A stretch of 64,000 bases of DNA from an uncultured delta proteobacterium (GTDB lineage: Bacteria > Desulfobacterota > Desulfobacteria > Desulfobacterales > JAHEIW01). The translations under genes and the position numbers were made by a program. Below the pieces are notes generated by a model. That model did no database searches. It was given only the letters and a program-made list of their open reading frames with translations, and had not been told where the DNA came from. The DNA lies in assembly GCA_963706575.1 (NCBI GenBank), contig CAVPNL010000012.1:205072-269071 (forward strand), in the 5' to 3' direction. This document shows positions 1-23,448 of the stretch, in pieces; position 1 is the stretch's first letter; each line of letters begins with the position of its first letter.

Positions 1-1
1 T

Positions 2-784
2 GTTCCATGGATTATTGGTATCTACGAATTCCAGGTGAACAAGTTGGATAAAGAATTTGTTGAGGATCTAAACGAATATAGAAACACAATGCGCAAAGAC
101 CCTCGACCGCAGCCATTACCACAGATGCGAACGATTCCAGTGGGTCAAAGTATTGAAGGCAATTTGGAAGTGCTCCCCTATGAACGTGCTGAAGAGCTGG
201 TGAAAGCCCACGAAAAATATGCAGTAGCGCCTTGTATCTGTCGTCGAAAAGCCAAGCTAATGGGTTCGGGATGTGAAGCACCAGAGGAATCTTGCCTCTA
301 TTTTGGTGACTGGGCGGACTATTACGTTCGAAACGGTCTGGGACGGTACGTTGACAGGGACAATCTACTGGATATTTTGGCTAAAGCTGACAAGTCCAAC
401 TTGGTGTTGCAACCCAGCAATTCCAAGGAAATCTCTTTGCTTTGTACTTGCTGCGGCTGCTGTTGTGGTGGGCTGTTACGTCTCAAGCAGCTTCCCAAAC
501 CCTCTGAAGCAGTTGCCAGCTCTTTTGTTGCAACGGCCACACCTGAAACTTGCGATGGCTGTGGGACTTGTCTGGACCGATGCCAGATGGAAGCTCTGAC
601 TCTTGAGGATGAGCAAGTGGTCTTGAATTCGGATCGCTGTATTGGTTGTGGATTATGTGTATCAACATGCCCTACGAGCTCATTGATTTTGAAGCGTAAA
701 TCTGTGAGTAAACATGTTCCCTTGAATATGGAAACTACTTGGAAAGAATTAAGCTTGGCACGAGCAGAAAAACAACAAGAATGA
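2..784 (+). CDS. 4Fe-4S dicluster (ferredoxin-domain) protein, 5'-truncated by the window edge
   Basis: Frame is open from position 2 (VPWIIGIYEFQV...). Two CxxCxxCxxxC ferredoxin motifs (CDGCGTCLDRC, CIGCGLCVSTCP) plus CICR and CTCCGCCC clusters. Confidence 0.85.
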   Translation, partial: VPWIIGIYEFQVNKLDKEFVEDLNEYRNTMRKDPRPQPLPQMRTIPVGQSIEGNLEVLPYERAEELVKAHEKYAVAPCICRRKAKLMGSGCEAPEESCLYFGDWADYYVRNGLGRYVDRDNLLDILAKADKSNLVLQPSNSKEISLLCTCCGCCCGGLLRLKQLPKPSEAVASSFVATATPETCDGCGTCLDRCQMEALTLEDEQVVLNSDRCIGCGLCVSTCPTSSLILKRKSVSKHVPLNMETTWKELSLARAEKQQE

Positions 785-838
785 TCAATAACTTCATGTG
801 TCGATCTTAACCAATTACCATTATTGATTTGTGTCGAA

Positions 839-925
839 GGGATTCCTAATTAAACCTCTGATTACTCTCCAACATATCGGCGAAATTGACCGGCCTCCAG
901 AAGTTGTGATATTTTCGCATATCTG
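839..925 (+). repeat. Repeat A, unoccupied copy of the recombinase-element target
   Basis: GGGATT..AAA.CT.TGATT..TCTCCAACATATCGGC...AAGTTGTGATA...ATATCTG aligns with the joined flanks 3180-3209 + 5325-5377. Confidence 0.75.
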
Positions 926-1206
926 TAAAATTGAGATAGTTGGGTTTCTCTCAATGTATCGGTAGTTGGCTGATAATTGGTTTTTTGGTAAGGTATCACC
1001 ACATGTCGGAACTCCCAATATTGATTGAAAAACCCCGTCGATTCGTTTATAAATTCTATTATACAATTTCTGATGCACCACTCCAGCTAACCGGAAGCTG
1101 TTCTCCTTTTCCTGAATCGAATCTTGCTGCTGATCTGATGCTACGCTTCACTGATTGATCTACATACTTAGTTCTTTAGTTTGAAACCTTAACGAAGGGG
1201 TTTCCT

Positions 1207-3100
1207 ATGGCAGATGAAGGTTTTAAGCGCAAGCTAACCGCAATTCTCAGCGCCGATGCAGTTGGGTACAGCCGTCTCATGGCAGAAGATGAGGCTGCCA
1301 CTGTAAAAACTATCGCTATCTACCGTGAAATCATGTCATCTCTGATCAAACAGCACAGGGGTCGAGTCGTTGATTCACCAGGGGATAATGTGCTGGCCGA
1401 GTTTTCCAGTGTGGTCGACGCCAGTGCAGTGTGCTGTGGCTGTGCAAAAGGAAATTCAGGCCCGAAACGCAGAGTTGGCCGAGAACCGTAGAATGGAGTT
1501 TCGCATTGGAATCAACCTTGGGGATGTCATTGATGAAGAAGGTCGCCTCTACGGCGATGGAGTCAACATCTCGGCCCGGCTGGAGGCACTGGCAGACCCT
1601 GGGGGTATATGCGTTTCAAAGACGGTTTTTGATCAAATCGAGACCAAACTACCGCTGGGCTATGAATATTTAGGAGAACAGTCAGTTAAAAATATACCCA
1701 AGCCGGTTGGTGCTTATCGGGTCTTGATGAAGCCTGATGATGCTGGCAAAGTGATTGGTGAAAAAAAATTTTTAGGTCGGTATTCACGCAGGACAGCGAT
1801 GGCCACCATTATAATTCTGATCGTAGTAGCAGTAGGTTTAGTTAGCTGGAATATTTATCTTCAGCAATCTAAACGAGTAGAGCCAGCATCTTTAGATAGA
1901 ATGGCCTATCCATTGCCAGATAAACCATCGATCGCAGTATTGCCATTTGTTAACATGAGCGACGACCCTGAGCAGGCGTATTTCAGTGACGGGATCACGG
2001 AGGATATCATCACGACCCTGTCCAAAGTCCCCAAGCTGTTCATCATCGCACGGAACTCGACATTTACATACAAGAATAGATCGGTCAAGGTTCAGCAGGT
2101 GGCAGAGGAACTGGGTGTGCGGTACGTGCTTGAAGGCAGCGTAAGGAAGGCGGGAGAAAAGATCCGTATTACGGCCCAGCTGATCGACGCCGTTAATGGC
2201 CATCACCTCTGGGCGGAACGATTTGACAGGGATCTGAAAGACATCTTCGCCCTTCAGGACGAGATCGCCATGAAGGTCCTAACCGCGCTGGAAGTTAAGT
2301 TGGTCGGGGGACATACTTCCCTTTTAATCTCAAGAGGGACCGATAACTTGGAGGCGTACCTGACTGTCTTACAGGGTCGCGAGTTTCATGAGCGCTCGAA
2401 CAGGGAAAACAATTTCATGGCTCGACAAAAATTCGAGGAAGCTCTGGCCTTGGATCCCAACTATGCCGCCGCCTTCAACCTGCTTGCCCGAACCCACTTC
2501 ATGGACGTCTGGCTCGGATCCAGTAAATCCCCCAAGGCGTCGCTCATAACGGCCATTGATCTAACACAGAAAGCTATTGTCTTGGACGATTCACTTGCGG
2601 ATTCGCACGCACTCCTCGGCTACCTCTATACCCTGACGCGGCAGCACGACAAGGCGATTGCGCAGGGGGAGCGGGCCGTGGAGCTCGATCCCAACTCCAG
2701 TTTAGCTTATCTTTGGCTGGGAACCAGCCTCAATTATATTGGAAGAACTGAGGAGGCCGTGGCCATGATTGAAAAGGCGATCCGCCATAACCCAATGCCC
2801 CCCAGTTCGTGGTACGTTTTCTTAGGCTCGGCCCTGTCAAACGCAGGGCGGTATGACGAGGCGGTAACCGCGTCCCGGAAGGCCGTAGAACTGTCACCAA
2901 ACAACATTTTCGCACAACTCGCACTGGTGTTGTCTTGCAATCTGGGCAGCCGCGATGAGGAGGCCCGTTCCGCAGCGGCCGAGGTCCTCCGGATACAGCC
3001 GAATTTCTCAGTAGATAATTTCGCTAAGAGAATGCCCTATAAAGACCCGGCGGACATGCAACGGATAGTGAAAGCGTGGCGCAAGGCGGGGCTGAAGTGA
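1207..3100 (+). pseudogene. Class III adenylate/guanylate cyclase + TM + TolB-like + TPR protein, split by a +1 frameshift at about 1421-1423 (real or sequencing error)
   Basis: KRKLTAILSADAVGYS and PGDNV in ORF 1207; FRIGINLGDV, GDGVNISARLE, KPSIAVLPF and TPRs in ORF 1370. Removing one base in GAC GCC A GTG CAG restores FSSVVDAVQCAVAVQ. Confidence 0.85.
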
Positions 3101-3297
3101 GGGAAAGCAAGGCACTACATGTTATGGCTTGGCTTATTTTCTTTAGATTGCATATATCATTAAAAATCACAGCCGTTTTGGGATTGTTAAAAACTGTGAT
3201 TTCTCCAACCTGTACGACATAAAATGATAATTGACTAAACAGTCGATCGAGGTCATTATCTACCTGTTTTTTCTGCAAAAAGCGAAAGGAGGTAGTG

Positions 3298-4377
3298 ATG
3301 AACCTCGAGCATGTGTCTGCAGGAAAAAGCACATACAGCCCCACAGCGATCCAGCCCAAAGCGATTCAACTTTCAATTTTTCCCAAAATATCTCTTCGCC
3401 CCGCCTATCATGTATCTAATGAACAGATCGAGCGCACCCTGCGGCGAATATCCGCTGAAGGGTTGTGTGGCAGCGATATGGTGCGCGATTACCTTTGCCG
3501 GCAGCTACGGCACAACTGCCGGCCCAGCACCATTCGCAGCAGCGGAACCACTATCGTGCTATTTTTAGAGTTTTTTAAGCAAAGCGGCGGTCAGCAGTTG
3601 GCGGCAGCAGGTCCAGAGCATATCAGCGCTTTTGTTGAACATGAGCAAGATCGTGGTATGGCGCCAAACTCGGTGGATGGACGGCTAAAGGGATTGTATG
3701 CGTTTTTAAATTTTTTAGTTGAGCACGAGGTTATCAGCGCGGATGTGATCAAGCGTAAGCTTCGCATCAGGGTGCCCCAGGCCCTGCCGCGGGCCATTGA
3801 TCCGGAGGATATTAAGCAGCTGTTGGCGGCAATAGAAAAGCCTCGGGATCGGGCGCTGATACTAACGCTTCTTCGCACCGGCATGCGTATCGGCGAGCTT
3901 TTAAGCACCAGGGTTAAGGATATCAATCTGCGCGAGCAACTGGTTCAGATCTTTGAAGCACATAAAAATCGGGTGGGCCGGGTGGTCTATCTTAGCGCTG
4001 ATGCGGTGGGCACCTTGGAAAAATGGTTAAAGACAAGAAAATATCAGAGCAAATTTATCTTTTATGGCTATGATGTTGGACCGCTTTGCTACCAAGCGGC
4101 CCGTGCGATGTTCAAACGCTATATAGACAAAACCGGTCTGGCCCACAAGGGCTACACGCTTCACTGCCTGCGTCACACATACGCCAGTGAGCTGTTAAAT
4201 GCCGGTATGCCGCTGCAATGTCTGCAGGAGCTTTTGGGTCACAAAAGCATTGAGATGACGCGCCGATATGCGCGGCTAACCGACAACACGCGTCGCAAGG
4301 CTTATTACCAGGCGATGACCATCATTGAAGCAGGAGAGATCAATGGGCATTACCGACTCGATTATCAACTACCGTAG
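3298..4377 (+). CDS. Tyrosine recombinase/integrase 1
   Basis: RBS AAGGAGG before ATG 3298. Catalytic motifs RTGMRIGE, HCLRH, LLGH, RRY. Confidence 0.92.
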   Translation: MNLEHVSAGKSTYSPTAIQPKAIQLSIFPKISLRPAYHVSNEQIERTLRRISAEGLCGSDMVRDYLCRQLRHNCRPSTIRSSGTTIVLFLEFFKQSGGQQLAAAGPEHISAFVEHEQDRGMAPNSVDGRLKGLYAFLNFLVEHEVISADVIKRKLRIRVPQALPRAIDPEDIKQLLAAIEKPRDRALILTLLRTGMRIGELLSTRVKDINLREQLVQIFEAHKNRVGRVVYLSADAVGTLEKWLKTRKYQSKFIFYGYDVGPLCYQAARAMFKRYIDKTGLAHKGYTLHCLRHTYASELLNAGMPLQCLQELLGHKSIEMTRRYARLTDNTRRKAYYQAMTIIEAGEINGHYRLDYQLP

Positions 4378-5263
4378 ATCGTTAAAAAGGCGCAACTTCT
4401 CTAAATACACCATCAGAAATTACATGAGCACACTGAAGCAGTTTGTCATTTGGCTGGATGTGCCCATCGATAAGGTAACCCACCAAAAGCTGGTGGGCTT
4501 TATCGATGATCTGTTGGCCAAGCGCCTGAAACCCAAGACCATCAACTGCTACCTGGACAGCATCCGCGGCTTCTATGACTACCTGATCTGTGAGGAGCAA
4601 CTTAAGATGCAAAATCCGGTGAAACTCGGAGATACACTGCGCATGTCCAAGCCACTGCCGCGCTTTTTGCGAGATGAGCAGGTGCGGACGCTTTTTGCAC
4701 AGATCGATGATCCAAGGGATTTGGCCATCTTCAAGCTGATGCTGCGCTGCGGCCTTAGGGTGCAAGAGGTGGCCAAGTTGACTCTTGCCTCTGTGGATTT
4801 AAAACGCGCCCAGGTGTTTGTCTACCATGGCAAGGGCGCCAAAGAACGGATGGTTTATTTAAGCAAAGATGCCTATCAGGCGCTTTTGGCCTATCTGAAG
4901 GTCAGGCCTTTCTCCCGGGCCAAAAGGCTTTTTTTGGTCAACAAGGGCCGCTTTAGAGGCCAACCGCTCAACGTTCGCGGCATCCAGCACCGTATCAAAT
5001 ACTACTCGAAAAAGGCGGGCTTTAAGGTCAGCTGCCACCAGCTGCGCCACACCATGGCCACCCAGATGCTCAATGCCGATGCGGATTTAGTGACCATCCA
5101 GGACCTTTTGGGCCACGCCTACATCACAACAACCGAGCGGTATTGCCGTGTGTCGAACCAGAAAGTGCGAAGGGATTACTACCGGGCAATGGATAAAGTA
5201 ATCGAGCGCCACAGCCCGGTCGGAAACAAAAGACTTGACAAAGAAGAAATTTTGATTAATTAA
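4343..5263 (+). CDS. Tyrosine recombinase/integrase 2
   Basis: GGAGAG before ATG 4343; overlaps gene 1. Motifs RCGLRVQE, GKG, HQLRH, LLGH, ERY. Confidence 0.92.
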   Translation: MGITDSIINYRRSLKRRNFSKYTIRNYMSTLKQFVIWLDVPIDKVTHQKLVGFIDDLLAKRLKPKTINCYLDSIRGFYDYLICEEQLKMQNPVKLGDTLRMSKPLPRFLRDEQVRTLFAQIDDPRDLAIFKLMLRCGLRVQEVAKLTLASVDLKRAQVFVYHGKGAKERMVYLSKDAYQALLAYLKVRPFSRAKRLFLVNKGRFRGQPLNVRGIQHRIKYYSKKAGFKVSCHQLRHTMATQMLNADADLVTIQDLLGHAYITTTERYCRVSNQKVRRDYYRAMDKVIERHSPVGNKRLDKEEILIN

Positions 5264-5388
5264 AATGGAAGCTAACTAATTAATATTAATAGAAATAACA
5301 GGGTTTATGTCGTACAGCTCCAACATATCGGCACTTTTGAACCCCTCGCAAAAGTTGTGATACTCGTTTTATATCTGCAATCATAAGG

Positions 5389-5476
5389 GCCAAGACAGTT
5401 CCGACCATTCTAATCTAATCGAACTATTTTTCCTCTACCAACCTCCGTCCTTGAAAGCTACACTTAGCTCTGATAT
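5389..5476 (+). repeat. Repeat B, copy 1
   Basis: GCCAAGACAGTTCCGACCATTCTAATCTAATCGAACT...CCTTGAAAGC...TGATAT; direct repeat of 6421-6509. Confidence 0.8.
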
Positions 5477-5520
5477 CAATTATGTATAAAGTTGACCTTT
5501 AGAAATACAGGAGCTGCGAA

Positions 5521-6408
5521 ATGCCACTTTACAAAATCCTTCCAGACGGACAAACACTTGAAATTGTTAAGAGAAAAGAATTCTCATATGAAAAAGACCT
5601 TCATATTCTTATAGACAGGAATCTCCTCAGTTTATTGGGAATAAGGTTAATTGCGAGTGAGTACCCAATTCCAAATGGAAGAATCGACACTCTTGGACTT
5701 GATGAAGATGATATTCCTGTAATAATAGAATATAAAAAAAAGAAGGATTTAAGCGCAATCGTTCAAGGCTTATTTTACCTTGATTGGATTATGCAGAACA
5801 AAAAGCCCTTTGGGTCGATAGTTAAAGATAAGCTAGGCAAAAGCGTGGATGTCAACTGGTCAAAGCAGCCTCGCCTTCTCATCATTGCACAAGATTTCGA
5901 TGTCAAAGAATTAACGGCTATTAATCAAATGGGTCCAAGAATTGAGTTGGTCAAATATTCATTCTACGAAGGATTATTCAATATTGACGGTGTGAATATC
6001 GTTGAGGCCAAATCACCACCCAAAAAAGATGAGGGCGAAAAGCCTTCTGAAGATTATACGGTTGAGCAATTGGTTAAGAAAGCAACCCCAGAAATTCAAT
6101 CCCTATATATGGAATTGCGAGAGAAAATAACCGCTATTTCTGAATCTGTGTGGGAGAAAGTTCATTCATATTATTGCGATTTCCGCACTACCTCAACTTT
6201 TACCACTGTAAATGTGCAAAAGACTCAACTTAAGATCTTTTTAAAGATGGGTGAACGCGAGGTTGATGATCCTAAAGGTCTTACTAAACCAGTCCCTTCA
6301 AGTTGGGGCTATGGTCACTTAAATACTCAGTTCCTTATTTCAAAAACTGATGAAATTGATGACGCAATGCATTTGATAATGCAGGCTTATGATTATGTTT
6401 CAGGATAA
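5521..6408 (+). CDS. PD-(D/E)xK (NucS/DUF91-like) endonuclease domain fused to a DUF5655-like C-terminal domain
   Basis: EKDLH, GRIDTLGLD..PVIIEYK and QGLFYLDW nuclease motifs; C-terminal GYGHLN...LIMQAY. Confidence 0.7.
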   Translation: MPLYKILPDGQTLEIVKRKEFSYEKDLHILIDRNLLSLLGIRLIASEYPIPNGRIDTLGLDEDDIPVIIEYKKKKDLSAIVQGLFYLDWIMQNKKPFGSIVKDKLGKSVDVNWSKQPRLLIIAQDFDVKELTAINQMGPRIELVKYSFYEGLFNIDGVNIVEAKSPPKKDEGEKPSEDYTVEQLVKKATPEIQSLYMELREKITAISESVWEKVHSYYCDFRTTSTFTTVNVQKTQLKIFLKMGEREVDDPKGLTKPVPSSWGYGHLNTQFLISKTDEIDDAMHLIMQAYDYVSG

Positions 6409-6420
6409 TTTTTAATTCGC

Positions 6421-6509
6421 GCCAAGTCAGTTCCGACCATTTTGATCTAATCAAACTTTATTACCTCATCGAACCTCAGTCCCTTGAAAGCCGCACGCAC
6501 CTTTGATAT
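6421..6509 (+). repeat. Repeat B, copy 2
   Basis: GCCAAGTCAGTTCCGACCATTTTGATCTAATCAAACT...CCTTGAAAGC...TGATAT; 4 mismatches in the first 37 nt versus copy 1. Confidence 0.8.
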
Positions 6510-6651
6510 AGATGCATATCAAATAGTTCCCGCATTCTGATGTTCTCTATATATTAACATTGCTTGGTAATAAAAATGCTTAGGTTTATACAGATCCTTT
6601 TAGGGGTCACTATCCCGGCGCCGGCCAATATTGTTCAATTCATATTTCAAC

Positions 6652-6691
6652 AAAAAAGCCGAGTCACCCACTAATCGGGCAATCTCGGCTT
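6652..6691 (-). terminator. Rho-independent terminator
   Basis: AAGCCGAG...CTCGGCTT stem followed by a U-tract on the minus strand, downstream of ORFs 6949 and 6758. Confidence 0.6.
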
Positions 6692-6757
6692 GCTGGCTAC
6701 TTTGGCCAATACCATAAGGTCTGGCCGTTTTGCTGGCTTGGTAATATGTGTAATTGA

Positions 6758-6952
6758 TTACCTTAGCTGCAATTTTCTGTTTTTAGTATGTTGCAGCTCG
6801 TAAACTCTCTCCAATTGGTCTCCCTTTAGCAACAGGGGAAATAGTCCGTCGAAGTCCTCAATGTGAAATACGAAACGCTCAGAGACTGAATCGTAATAGA
6901 TCTCATAGGGCTTTCTGAATTTGCTTTTTTTAAAAACTATAGGTTTTTTCAA
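6758..6952 (-). CDS. Small hypothetical protein
   Basis: 64-aa ORF whose TTG start overlaps the stop of the upstream gene. Confidence 0.4.
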   Translation of the reverse strand: MKKPIVFKKSKFRKPYEIYYDSVSERFVFHIEDFDGLFPLLLKGDQLERVYELQHTKNRKLQLR

Positions 6953-7818
6953 CTTGGCTCCTTGTCTAACAATTTATATAGATCCACTGATACGGGAGAC
7001 TTTGACAAAAATTTTTCAAGCTTTTTATCTGTTTTCAACTTTTGTTGTTTTTCCGTGTAAGTGCGTTCAAATTCAGATTGATAAGCGTCTAGGGCATTTT
7101 CTATAAAGGAAAGGTCGTCAAGCACCTGTCTGTGTTCCTCCGAGCTAAATGTTCTCTTTGATTCGACAATATCCCTGATCGCTCCGACCCTTTTTCTTGC
7201 GAAGATGGGCGGTGTCACTATCATTTCCCGAGTTTCACGGTATTTAAGCATGTTAAACAGGAGTATTGCTAATGCTGATTTTTTATCAAACTCATCACCA
7301 TCAACCTTTTCCAATTTCCTTTGCAATGTGATAACAAATCTTAGGAGTAGAAAAAAAACAGCCTCGCTGTAATGGTTTGCCTCAAACAGCATCTTTTGGT
7401 AATCATCCGATGGAATGCCAGGATCAATCTCGTAGGGATTCCAAGCGGGCAGTGTGGTTTTTGTCCGTTTAATAATTTCAGACGCAAACTCGATGGCGTG
7501 AGCATAAGAAGACTCATAAAATTCGGGGTCAGTCCTCCATTTCCGCAACAGACCGTATGAAACATCACAACTTTTTGCGATATCCTTTAGCGTCCAGTTT
7601 GTTATACCAGCCAGCATAGCAGCATAATATTTTTTCCGTGAAAAACCGATTTTCTCGCCTTTGGAGGTGCCTGCTCTTGTCGGTTGCTCGTAATCGTGGA
7701 GATGATATAGAACATATTCACCAATGAGCGCAGAGATATTGCTCTCGGGTTTCTGGGTAAGCCGTCTGATCTCCTCCCATAAACGATCTGATTCTGTCAT
7801 TTTGTTAGATTGTGCCAT
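6949..7818 (-). CDS. Hypothetical HTH-containing protein (phBC6A51/terminase-small-subunit-like HTH)
   Basis: TLKDIAKSCDVSYGLLRKWRTDPEF helix-turn-helix; RBS GGGAG. Confidence 0.6.
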   Translation of the reverse strand: MAQSNKMTESDRLWEEIRRLTQKPESNISALIGEYVLYHLHDYEQPTRAGTSKGEKIGFSRKKYYAAMLAGITNWTLKDIAKSCDVSYGLLRKWRTDPEFYESSYAHAIEFASEIIKRTKTTLPAWNPYEIDPGIPSDDYQKMLFEANHYSEAVFFLLLRFVITLQRKLEKVDGDEFDKKSALAILLFNMLKYRETREMIVTPPIFARKRVGAIRDIVESKRTFSSEEHRQVLDDLSFIENALDAYQSEFERTYTEKQQKLKTDKKLEKFLSKSPVSVDLYKLLDKEPS

Positions 7819-7865
7819 TTCGCTCCCTACTGATTGAATCCAGTGTGATAATCAAAAAACAATAT

Positions 7866-7900
7866 AAGTAACATATATAAAAAAATGTTACTTTTGTCAA
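7866..7900 (-). promoter_or_regulatory. Promoter with palindromic operator
   Basis: TTGACA on the minus strand (7900-7895) next to a perfect inverted repeat AAGTAACAT-N10-ATGTTACTT. Confidence 0.55.
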
Positions 7901-8098
7901 ATGTTTTTTTCATCAAATTGAATTTTGGGCAAAAGCTATTGGAATGATTCGATTTTTATACAATTAAGGAAGGGATATTAGAAAACAAAAACCCGCTGCC
8001 GAAACTGCGGGTCGTGAGATTCAAAATATAATAGTATGGTAAGCAGGGATATAAAATCCAGCCATAAACTGGGCGTAAATTATTATTCGAAAAATTTA

Positions 8099-8509
8099 TT
8101 AACCGACTTCATCGGGTTTTTTTATCGCAAAATTTTTTTCGTTTTTGCTTTTTTCATCATCATTAATTAAAGTTATTAATTTATAATTCCCCTCTTCCTT
8201 TGCTGTCACTGGGGAAATAATCATATGAAATTGAAATCTAGTATATCCCTTGATGTGTTCTGGGGGGCCACCCTTTACTTTTTTCCCAATCCGATTCCCA
8301 GAAGGATCTAAGAGTTCAGCTGAAAAAATATCGCCTCCTTTAATGTTTTCATAATTTATTACAAAACAGAGCTTGGGGAAGGTAAAGGGAAATTTTGGAA
8401 CAAAGATATCTTTGGCATAAACGCCCATCATCGAAATTTTATTTCCCACCTCTTCCCTTATATCATCACAGATTAGTGTGAAATTACATTTCGGTTTTTT
8501 CGCTGGCAT
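8099..8509 (-). CDS. DUF6941-like beta-rich protein, third gene of the TA locus
   Basis: ICDDIREEVGNKISMMGVY...FPFTFPKLCF signature; AGAGGGA before ATG 8509; overlaps the antitoxin 3' end. Confidence 0.7.
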   Translation of the reverse strand: MPAKKPKCNFTLICDDIREEVGNKISMMGVYAKDIFVPKFPFTFPKLCFVINYENIKGGDIFSAELLDPSGNRIGKKVKGGPPEHIKGYTRFQFHMIISPVTAKEEGNYKLITLINDDEKSKNEKNFAIKKPDEVG

Positions 8510-9173
8510 ACCATCCCTCTGAAGAAGCATCTGAATTGGAGGAAAACACTTGTTCTGTATCCATCTGCGAAACCCCTGATGAAAATAAACTATCCTCCGC
8601 GTATGTCGATTGTGGGTCTCTCACACCCAAAAAAACCGTCTTAGGTCTCTGTGTGCAAGGATTAGAGATTTGCTGCAACCTGACTTTGTAATCGTCTTGA
8701 TAAAACTCAGCAATAATTTGATAGAACATCTTTGTTTCTTGAAGACGTATCTCAGATAGATTTTTCAGTATTTTTTGCGAATCTTCAATCTTTATTCCCT
8801 TATAAATCATATAGGTAGCTCTAATTAATCGGTCATTTGTCTCGCTGTGATTTTGAAGGTCATTTTCCCATTTTGAATAAGTTGTGCTCCCTACCCCCAA
8901 AGCAGATGCAAATTTTTTTGATGGAAAATGCATATTTTTTCTTAAAAATTTAATTTCGCTACCATTTAGCAAAGAATGTTTTTCCAAAAGAACCGACGCA
9001 ATTAAATCGCTCAGATATCCCACTCGAAAAATTGAAGGGTACATTATGCCGCAATTGCACTCATAAACGGGAATATTATGGATATTTACGTTGTATAGAC
9101 CAGATTCTCTATACCAATAATCCCCTATTTTCGGCTGAATTAATTTGCCACAACCGGGACATTTATTTTTCAT
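8484..9173 (-). CDS. MqsA/YgiT-type zinc-finger + HTH antitoxin with a long C-terminal extension
   Basis: CPGC...YRESGL...CNCG zinc finger; LNGSEIKFLRK...FASALGV...YSKWEN HTH. Confidence 0.85.
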   Translation of the reverse strand: MKNKCPGCGKLIQPKIGDYWYRESGLYNVNIHNIPVYECNCGIMYPSIFRVGYLSDLIASVLLEKHSLLNGSEIKFLRKNMHFPSKKFASALGVGSTTYSKWENDLQNHSETNDRLIRATYMIYKGIKIEDSQKILKNLSEIRLQETKMFYQIIAEFYQDDYKVRLQQISNPCTQRPKTVFLGVRDPQSTYAEDSLFSSGVSQMDTEQVFSSNSDASSEGWYASEKTEM

Positions 9174-22833: not shown

Positions 22834-22845
22834 ATGATCATCACG

Positions 22846-23255
22846 CTATACGTAACAAATGCCAATTTTTCTCTTAATATTAATTAGTTATATTCTGTTT
22901 AATAATTCGTATTTTGCTGGCTATCAAGCAAAATTAAAGATGATTACCTCCGGTTCGCTGCATCACCAGCCTCATTGCTTTAAAATAATCACGCTGTACT
23001 TTGAGATTGCACACCTTGCAATACCTCTGGGTTGTCTTGATTCTCGCATGGCCTAACAGATCCTGGATGGTGACCAGATCCGCATCGGCATTGAGCAGTT
23101 GAGTCGCCATCGTATGACGCAGCTGGTGGCATGATATCGGCAAACCGGTTTTGTTGGCATAGTGCTCCATTCGTTTTTGGATGCCTCGCACCGATATCGA
23201 TTTGCCTCTGTGAGTGCCTTTTTCAACCAGGAACAGCTTCTTGACTCTGCAAAAC
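22846..23255 (-). pseudogene. Remnant of a related twin-recombinase element (3' part of recombinase 2 plus degenerate right end)
   Basis: LFLVEKG..RG..SCHQLRHTMATQLLNADADLVTIQDLLGHA is near-identical to gene 4343; end motif TAACTAATTAATATTAA.AGAAA is shared. Confidence 0.85.
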
Positions 23256-23448
23256 AGAATCTCACATGGCCTCCTTTTCGCGTATTTTCCGACAGGCAAG
23301 GAATTCAATATCATCAAGAGAGAGTGTTTTTTCTTTTCTTTTGCAAGCGAATGCGGGAAAATCTCTAATCGGTAATTTCTTTGTCAATCACGGATGCATT
23401 GAAATTCGAAGATTCTCTTAGACTAAAATTGGAAAAATACAATCGAAA

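Follow-up and report, generated by a model that had tools for sequence, protein, structure and literature searches.

Can two small tyrosine recombinases, with nothing else on board, constitute a mobile element, and where would such an element land? The question arises at a 64,000-nucleotide stretch of DNA from an uncultured delta proteobacterium (contig CAVPNL010000012.1, positions 205,072 to 269,071; hereafter the window), part of a 5.67-Mb genome of the sediment sulfate-reducer type. There, two tyrosine-recombinase genes, here called A and B, stand alone within a unit of 2,122 bp (3203..5324). We conclude that this unit is probably an autonomous, site-specific transposon of the size of an insertion sequence (IS), moved by its own recombinase pair by way of a circle. 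The observations behind this reading are the anatomy of the unit, its two copies in the genome, the architecture that it shares with a family of relatives, the fixed 7-mer at its borders, the intact catalytic sets of both enzymes and a left/right rule followed by its siblings.

Anatomy, enzymes and copies of the two-gene unit

On the left, the 7-mer CTCCAAC (3203..3209), the left core and attL overlap region, is followed by a 14-nt terminal inverted repeat, CTGTACGACATAAA (3210..3223). On the right, the terminal inverted repeat TTTATGTCGTACAG (5304..5317) is followed by CTCCAAC again (5318..5324), the right core and attR overlap region (all on the plus strand, as are the other window features given below unless stated). 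The two 14-bp repeats, placed 2080 nt apart by a repeat finder, are perfect (100% complementary), and the identical 7-mer stands at both ends of both copies of the element. The terminal 14-mer occurs exactly four times in the 5.67-Mb genome, counting both strands, and all four occurrences are ends of the two element copies; the count rises to 5 at one mismatch and to 27 at two. CTCCAAC itself is not enriched (396 found, compared with about 692 expected for a uniform 7-mer).

Gene A (3298..4377) encodes 359 amino acids, in which about 65 weakly conserved N-terminal residues precede the core-binding and catalytic domains, and gene B (4343..5263), which overlaps A by 35 nt, encodes 306 amino acids counted from the first ATG. 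The non-coding ends measure 88 and 54 nt, so there is no space for cargo, and the remaining open reading frames (ORFs) of at least 60 amino acids all lie inside A or B in other frames. The original prediction had proposed a unit of this kind, with CTCCAAC-bordered inverted ends, two overlapping recombinases with intact residues and no cargo, and it holds in each of these respects, the enzymes being confirmed by their ORFs, their PF00589 matches and alignments. Within the ends, a subterminal repeat on the left, CTGTTTTTTCT (3264..3274), has its inverted partner, AGAAATAACAG, at 5291..5301, immediately inside the right terminal repeat (AGAAAAAACAG in the second copy). A k-mer search recovered subterminal inverted pairs of the CTGTTTTTTC/TGTTTTTTCT type at four other family loci (L022, L024, L025 and L028).

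The second copy lies on contig C1 of the same genome, on the opposite strand (G000:C1:10-2131), and differs at 8 of 2,122 nt, all of them in the last third; its A protein is identical and its B protein has three residue differences. It too is flanked on both sides by CTCCAAC. On the left, the homology of the two copies breaks off precisely where CTCCAAC ends on its outer side. The left flank of the C1 copy is unrelated to that of the window beyond about 20 nt, its left target arm reading GTTCAAAAGTTGCGATTA, and its right flank, readable for 9 nt before the contig ends, diverges from the window after ATATC. In the window, the left target arm, GTTAAAAACTGTGATTT (3186..3202), is an imperfect mirror of the right flank at 5325-5342, the reverse complement of which, GTTCAAAAGTGCCGATAT, matches it at 13 of 18 positions by manual count. 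The element is far beyond chance, because the C1 copy repeats its ends and the 7-mer at either side. The near-identical copies at unrelated loci, together with the recurrence of the family in other genomes, support the view that the unit is mobile, as had been predicted.

Judged by sequence, A and B are distantly related Xer-like tyrosine recombinases. Both match PF00589 (E 2.7e-39 for A and 2.5e-36 for B), and B additionally has an N-terminal SAM-like domain. Alignment to solved Xer proteins gives a complete catalytic set for A (R197, K223, H289, R292, H315 and Y324) and for B (R139, K167, H232, R235, H258 and Y267), so that both carry the R-K-HxxR-H/W-Y signature of the superfamily. The top NCBIfam profiles are XerA, XerC and XerD, every one of them scoring under its curated cut-off: the Xer equivalog scores are 163 against 220 for A and 203 against 335 for B, and the best XerC/XerD scores are 153.8-202.8 bits against 330-335. 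No Tn554-type profile is among the NCBIfam matches of either protein.

Within one element, A and B are 23-34% identical, and they form separate clades, that of B being pure with a support of 1.0. Pairwise identities among A proteins correlate with those among B proteins (r = 0.95 over 406 pairs, the relatives not being independent). The six catalytic columns are intact in 29/29 B and 28/29 A sequences (one A has Arg replaced by Gly), and both ORFs are undamaged in 29 of 33 elements. The separate clades, the parallel divergence and the retained residues therefore indicate that the pair is old, has been inherited together and has been selected as two enzymes. A prediction of A–B contact from alignments A2 and A3 scored 0.09 against a mark of 0.32, without controls, and we conclude nothing from this score.

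The same plan recurs in relatives. We sampled 60 other genomes from the order, 21 of them from the same genus, and found A homologues (E <= 1e-40) in 8, of which 4 are among the genus members. The nine loci in these eight genomes share the order 7-bp direct repeat, 14-bp inverted repeat, promoter, A, overlapping B and subterminal repeat; their 14-bp repeats vary (mostly ...ACGTAACAAA), as do their 7-mers, with CTCCAAC, TCTCAAT, ATAGCCG, CTGCCTT and CRGCTAT as cores. A scan of public genomes, with one genome per species, yielded 70 family loci, with 3-5 copies in several genomes, in records titled Desulfobacterales, Desulfobulbales, Syntrophobacteraceae, Nitrospirota, Nitrospinaceae, Chloroflexota, Bacteroidales and others. 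Eighteen of the 70 had no room at one end and were left out of the end comparison. The family repeat is present at both ends in 32 of the remaining 52, and the 20 further loci, in which the element is truncated, interrupted or differently spaced, gave chance repeats only. The flanking 7-mers of the 32 copies agree at 7/7 positions in 23, at 6/7 in 3, at 5/7 in 3 and at 4/7 in 3.

In a protein search, 6,423 of 8,000 scored candidates reached E <= 1e-30, and many of the best 120 matches sit on contigs of about 2-2.5 kb, as expected of a repeat that interrupts assemblies. PLSDB plasmid records contain no family member, their sole match being distant (32% identity over 55% of A). Two metagenome contigs (L128:1090-1120 and L129:1911-1941) carry a solitary perfect palindrome, TTATGTTACGTATAG CACCTGC CTATACGTAACATAA, which consists of the two end repeats of the family around 7 bp. 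No recombinase gene lies between these repeats or next to them, and the palindrome may be either a junction-like site standing alone or a natural sequence imitated by the ends of the element.

Candidate expression signals are found at the left end. A promoter search identified an inward-pointing, promoter-like site (TTGACT, 17 nt, CATTAT; 3231..3259), and the motifs ATTGAC and CATTATCT of this region are retained in most of 21 aligned relatives. A predicted hairpin in the 5' leader (3247..3308) pairs CATTATCTACCT with the Shine–Dalgarno sequence GGAGG (3288-3292) and the ATG (3298-3300) of A, at −32.3 kcal/mol (z −5.7; 0/200 shuffles equally stable), and its left arm overlaps the −10 hexamer. 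Across the family, the inner six pairs and the CAU:AUG pairing are retained in 14-22 of 22 sequences, with covariation at one position (G-C in 8, A-U in 6); RNAalifold gave no consensus for the hairpin across the family. Classical insertion sequences use start-hiding devices against incoming transcription. The predicted hairpin, if real, would likewise mask the start of A in transcripts that enter from outside, and not in those from the element's own promoter.

The 7-mer and the module that it heads

Six independent insertions of this lineage all show CTCCAAC, namely those of the window, C1, G012 (left side only), G015, L041 and L043. A 7-mer that stays constant at six sites must therefore be carried or selected and is no random target duplication, in agreement with the 7-bp crossover core that had been proposed from the window. 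How it is carried can be read from siblings in which the two flanking 7-mers differ. One Nitrospiraceae genome has four copies, 99.9-100% identical, the right 7-mer of which is always CAGGGTG, with CAGGGTG, CTTGGTG, CTTGGTG and CAGAGTG on the left. The lineage's own 7-mer stands on the right in 6/6 unequal pairs that can be judged (including L054, L061 and L088); L068 and L069, which have identical pairs of 7-mers, and L081, which has no sibling, could not be judged. By manual count, positions 1-4 account for 12 of the 13 mismatches in the core, and positions 5 and 7 for none.

If the bottom strands alone were exchanged, after a cut at the right edge of the core, the left border would keep bases of the target and the right border those carried by the element, and pairing would be needed only on the right-hand side, whereas a complete two-strand exchange would leave a heteroduplex and should yield both arrangements. 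This probable strand bias is read from a small number of events. Beyond what had been predicted, the family-wide data point to a one-sided exchange of the kind described for Tn554 and SE elements.

The landing sites in this genome are the head of a repeated module rather than an arbitrary CTCCAAC, a feature that the original prediction did not include. Both copies occupy the 7 bases with which an intergenic module of about 60 bp opens; its consensus is CTCCAAC ATATC n5 TTTTGA n7 AAAA nn TTGTGATAT n6-7 ATATCACA. An nhmmer profile finds 42 copies in the genome at E < 0.02, in which CTCCAAC is exact in 22 and changed at one base in 11. At the window element, the right core doubles as the first 7 bases of the module, the rest of which (ATATCGGCACTTTTGAA ... 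TTGTGATACTCGTTTTATATC) occupies 5325..5380; this is the best match in the genome (C12:210389-210451, E 3e-14). Conservation starts sharply at the 7-mer, which holds 1.5 bits per base; the 15 bases on its left hold 0.2, and the sequence on its right 0.9. A weak left mirror arm (AAAAC..TG.GATAT) is present at about half of the module sites. We considered a hairpin or terminator formed by left arm, core and right arm and rejected it, as the 0.2 bits of the left arm mean that a conserved stem is not general. The module also holds a promoter-like TTGACC-16-(TG)GATATT and a second palindrome, GATAT-n7-ATATC. Targets of other lineages, elsewhere, have short mirror-symmetric arms around the 7-mer, and some lie inside local repeats.

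Modules are arranged in arrays. A neighbour lies within 10 kb for 32 of the 42, on the same strand in every case, and the preceding gene stops 10-50 bp ahead of a module, while the next gene, which is co-oriented, begins 200-780 bp beyond it. Examples are G000:C1:4378-10972, C1:177264-184292, C4:266683-308709 and C4:350393-360672. Accessory genes of mixed kinds fill the stretches between modules: four serine hydrolases, a thioesterase, a Yip1-domain membrane protein and a hybrid kinase, as well as hydrolases, a sulfur oxygenase-reductase homologue, a globin, an aldo-keto reductase, a caspase-like peptidase and adenylate cyclase-TPR proteins.

Other mobile elements meet the module at almost the same bases. 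A group II intron, co-oriented with the genes (G000:C4:301232-303086, minus strand; L111:6233-8087), lies within a module core, CTCCAA|C, and is identified by a reverse transcriptase/maturase ORF and by Rfam matches to D1-D4 and to domain V/VI. A 1,853-bp DDE-type IS (DDE_Tnp_1_6/DUF772 transposase; G000:C1:180724-182576, C6:430691-432543 and C8:245377-246980, with a partial copy at C4:293701-294263) has the right end ...TTCCCAACATAT, which in two of three full copies adjoins the module at the position that matches ATAT|C, four bases past the core, as if the end of the IS mimicked the module head. The module itself could be a terminator/promoter unit exploited by mobile elements, or the recombination site of a cassette system.

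The window contains a second, unoccupied module (867..927; CTCCAAC at 867-873) 2.3 kb upstream of the element and in the same orientation, within which the promoter-like TTGACC-16-GATATT spans 886..913. Just past it is a second 7-mer, TCTCAAT (949..955), placed 82 bp further on, as in one module subfamily. A second lineage of the family uses TCTCAAT as its core and is inserted exactly there in G034 and G015. Truncated remains of a lineage other than that of the element occur in the window on the minus strand (22839-23281), where a B-like gene survives as its 3' half, 65% identical, together with a subterminal repeat, the right end TTTGTTACGTATAG being followed by CGTGATG, and on C18 (G000:C18:69293-69345 and C18:89256-89556), where CGTGAAA follows.

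Between the two modules of the window, an adenylate-cyclase/TPR gene (1207-3100) is read in two frames (1207-1491 and 1370-3100), by a frameshift or a sequencing error; its paralogues are common in the genus behind the same module subtype. Downstream of the element, 5521-6408 encodes a DUF5655 protein (E 1e-10) with a NucS-C-like nuclease domain (E 1e-7). Rfam gave no match at E <= 1 in window positions 1-9000. In four array loci, its gathering score was reached only by the group II intron and by one c-di-GMP riboswitch, with four weaker matches below. The riboswitch, of the c-di-GMP-I-GGC type, lies inside an array (G000:C4:354680-354754, minus strand; L112:6681-6755) and scores 67.8 bits against a gathering score of 59. 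A segment of about 280 bp, 95% identical, is present in the long leaders of three inter-module units (G000:C4:305899-306179, C1:174213-174492 and C1:3921-4197) and missing in a homologue in G018; it is possibly a small non-autonomous insertion.

Possible routes of movement

From the anatomy and the left/right rule we infer a circle, a heteromer of A and B, a division of labour between them and a bias for one strand. Recombination between the border copies of CTCCAAC would free a 2,115-bp circle with a single CTCCAAC between the two 14-bp repeats, which then face each other, and this circle would re-enter DNA at a site with the same 7 bases, the asymmetric 7-mer setting its orientation. As every border joins an arm of the element to an unrelated arm of the target, and as A and B are both catalytically complete, a mixed A/B complex would act there, with one protein on the element arms and the other on the loosely palindromic target arms (GATAT-like sequence, core, ATATC-like sequence). 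In the siblings, the right 7-mer would move with the element and the left one would come from the target, a match being needed only in the right-hand three bases. A single bottom-strand exchange would then be followed by replication, in a copy-out/copy-in route as proposed for Tn554 and SE elements, which would account for genomes with several copies. In the genome studied here, CTCCAAC at the module heads would offer ready landing sites.

A joint between the two ends was seen in a sibling lineage. A metagenome contig of 2,246 bp reads flank, ACAGGAA, a complete element, ACAGGAA and then, once more, the first 38 nt of the element; the ends are joined head to tail across 7 bp that equal the flanking 7-mer, and the path of the contig implies that reads across left end, 7 bp and right end must exist. 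For the element itself, we aligned Logan contigs of four runs, which drop rare forms, on window positions 2600-6000. A contig of run X3 continues from the left flank (170 of 188 positions alike, 90%) and CTCCAAC into module-like sequence with no element, and one of run X4 continues from the right end and CTCCAAC into another flank. Two joints seen in these contigs lie within gene B, with sides of 23-26 nt, and probably come from related copies. The synteny of relatives, considered as a way to an orthologous empty site or to the presence or absence of cassettes, was given up because the regions are a patchwork and the genomes fragmented; in G014, homology with the window stops about 45 bp ahead of the core.

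Several points weigh against the route outlined above. Neither the circle junction (5317 to 3210) nor a skip of the element was found in the contigs of the four runs, nor was a precise empty site for either of the two loci, and the exact junction pattern of this lineage has 0 matches in metagenome contigs. The predicted circle that joins the repeats through CTCCAAC was therefore not recovered for the element itself, while the 7-bp head-to-tail joint that it implies was seen in the sibling lineage; that joint could represent a circle or a tandem pair. Both copies in the genome have equal 7-mers and are uninformative on strand bias, and the 6/6 rule comes from four genomes, with three cases within one of them. 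Wholly different cores (TGTTGTA and GAGCGTA) flank elements that are 95% identical, so a carried 7-mer must be replaceable, and the simple route leaves this replacement unexplained. The data favour neither assignment of A and B to the two arms. For the leader, the full helix is no better than shuffled versions (152/500), with no support from covariation along its whole length; because the whole helix fails against these controls, the hairpin is a prediction only.

Part of this evidence would also fit classical conservative excision and integration, in which both strand pairs are exchanged, as in lambda or Cre, and the left/right rule reflects repair or sampling. Such a route is possible, although we hold it to be clearly the less likely one. 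It accords with the 23 of 32 copies with identical 7-mers, as full homology-dependent exchange demands, and two proteins with full catalytic residues fit two ordered exchanges, as with XerC/XerD. Unequal cores should, however, then be inherited in either arrangement, and all six that could be judged are target-left and carried-right. Copy number would grow only through re-integration after replication, whereas genomes with 3-5 near-identical copies better fit a replicative route. We give hardly any credence to an invertible segment or a resident Xer-type pair, whose repeats would be there for inversion or local resolution. In its favour are the inverted repeats and the closest profiles, XerC, XerD and XerA, but the 7-mers are direct, not inverted, A and B score below all Xer cut-offs, and contig C3 of the genome holds two other, better Xer-like genes; near-identical copies at unrelated loci, the presence in other phyla and the exact ends contradict this explanation.

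The modules invite a broader alternative, namely that they are the recombination sites of a chromosomal cassette platform unrelated to integrons, in which the inter-module stretches are promoter-bearing cassettes, excised and put back at the common 7-bp core by Xer-like recombinase pairs, and the two-gene unit is a self-mobilising cassette that supplies the enzymes. We regard this as doubtful. The 42 modules, 32 of them with a co-oriented neighbour within 10 kb, their position just past gene stops and the mixed accessory genes between them are what such a platform would look like, and the 7-mer is the best conserved part of the module, with conservation beginning exactly there. The array is not syntenic across the 21 genus genomes, and no other obvious candidate recombinase lies near the arrays, none of the ten PF00589 matches in the genome adjoining them. 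Yet core-bearing modules are present in G002, G003, G011, G013 and G014, in which no A homologue is found at E <= 1e-40 (genomes 78-86% complete), and elsewhere the lineage also inserts at CTCCAAC outside modules (L041 and L043). With its good promoter-like site, the module may be a simple regulatory unit, and no cassette was found in two contexts with breakpoints at the core, the homology in G014 ending short of it. A transposon that moves by way of a circle and uses module heads as targets remains the explanation that we prefer.

Known systems and what the family offers

The comparisons that follow draw on passages of the papers cited. A review table (PMC10214605) divides prokaryotic tyrosine-recombinase transposons into five groups, ICE/IME, SE, GInt, RIT and Tn554. 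The original prediction had recognised no named family here, and all five groups of this 2023 overview, as its table describes them, fail to fit; the prediction's statement that RIT elements carry three recombinases and Tn554 two plus TnpC agrees with the same source.

Tn554 resembles the element in its adjacent tyrosine recombinases, its target specificity and the absence of a true target duplication (PMC12486829, PMC10214605). It resembles the siblings further in a 6-7-bp att with the target's copy on the left and the one brought in on the right. According to PMC12486829, the 7-bp att on the left of Tn552-II and Tn554 stays from the target, the one on the right is brought in from the donor, and the circular form has a 7-bp spacer, to which the joint of a sibling may correspond. 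For the att, our data give the target-left, carried-right arrangement in 6/6 sibling cases, equal cores in the element itself and the joint in a sibling only. Tn554 differs in that it needs TnpC, has one ordinary and one large recombinase, carries resistance cargo and is reported from Staphylococcus and Enterococcus (PMC10214605), whereas the element has two small Xer-like proteins (359 and 306 amino acids), no third ORF, no cargo and perfect 14-bp repeats, and its family occurs in sediment Desulfobacterota, Nitrospirota and others.

SE elements (SE-6283 and SE-6945) and GInt share with it two catalytic tyrosine recombinases, terminal inverted repeats (theirs of 13-19 bp and imperfect) and a travelling spacer (PMC10214605). 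In the same source, SE elements show the left/right behaviour with 6 bp, and a copy-out route without an empty site is proposed for SE and GInt. Those elements have four conserved genes (intA, tfp, intB and srap, or ginA-D, that is, two recombinases plus Tfp/GinC and Srap/GinD), lengths of 7-14 kb or more, cargo, a 6-bp spacer and reported hosts among Gamma- and Betaproteobacteria; the element has two genes only, 2.1 kb and a 7-bp core. RIT elements are likewise compact and cargo-free, with overlapping tyrosine-recombinase genes between inverted repeats and a mobility inferred from multiple copies (PMC3414803, PMC8138268). They differ in having three recombinases (ritA, ritB and ritC), about 3.5 kb and repeats of 28-34 bp, and the passages give no defined flanking core. 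Here, and in 29 of 33 elements, there are two ORFs, and 14-bp terminal repeats enclose the cargo-free recombinase block.

The nearest sequence relatives of A and B are Xer proteins. XerC and XerD, with dif and the dif-like sites that other elements use, likewise combine two catalytic paralogues and a two-arm site around a short spacer. Xer proteins are host housekeeping enzymes of a single chromosomal site, whereas here the pair itself is mobile and brings its own arms; a search of the genome with a dif consensus gave nothing convincing. The co-oriented arrays that follow ORFs bring integrons to mind, as does CTCCAAC in reverse (GTTGGAG), which resembles GTTRRRY, the consensus of the attC core. 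The integron/attC reading was rejected. Neither protein has an IntI-type score (TIGR02249: 75.3 bits for A and 111.5 for B, against a cut-off of 265), and no paired inverse core 50-130 bp away was seen by eye in the three module types read. Introns of attC sites are described from the bottom strand, opposite to transcription (PMC3001079), whereas the group II intron found here is co-oriented with the genes. We also set aside the BIM modules of Cupriavidus, which as described combine a recombinase with an SMC-domain protein rather than two recombinases, and IntDes, described as a subgroup confined to Desulfovibrio with an altered catalytic core. In the literature searched, which lay outside subscription journals, ISfinder and TnCentral, we found no description of an element made up of two small tyrosine recombinases only. 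Gene content excludes RIT, Tn554, SE/GInt, integrons and host Xer systems; in behaviour, Tn554 and SE elements are closest.

New from this window are the module as a landing pad, two lineages that use two 7-mers of one module type, an intron in the core and an IS end just after it, the strand logic of left and right, and the head-to-tail joint of a sibling. The repeated module is worth a study of its own, as a second kind of mobile element also uses those few bases for entry. The five recognised groups are all large, cargo-bearing or reliant on extra proteins. The family described here would be a stripped-down form that makes do with two small recombinases, ends of 14 bp and an address of 7 bp; its members are found across uncultured Desulfobacterota, Nitrospirota, Nitrospinota and others. 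Its small size and the existence of natural copies with unequal cores would make it a clean system for questions that Tn554 and SE elements raise: the identity of the exchanged strand, the origin of the travelling spacer and the reason why two recombinases are needed.

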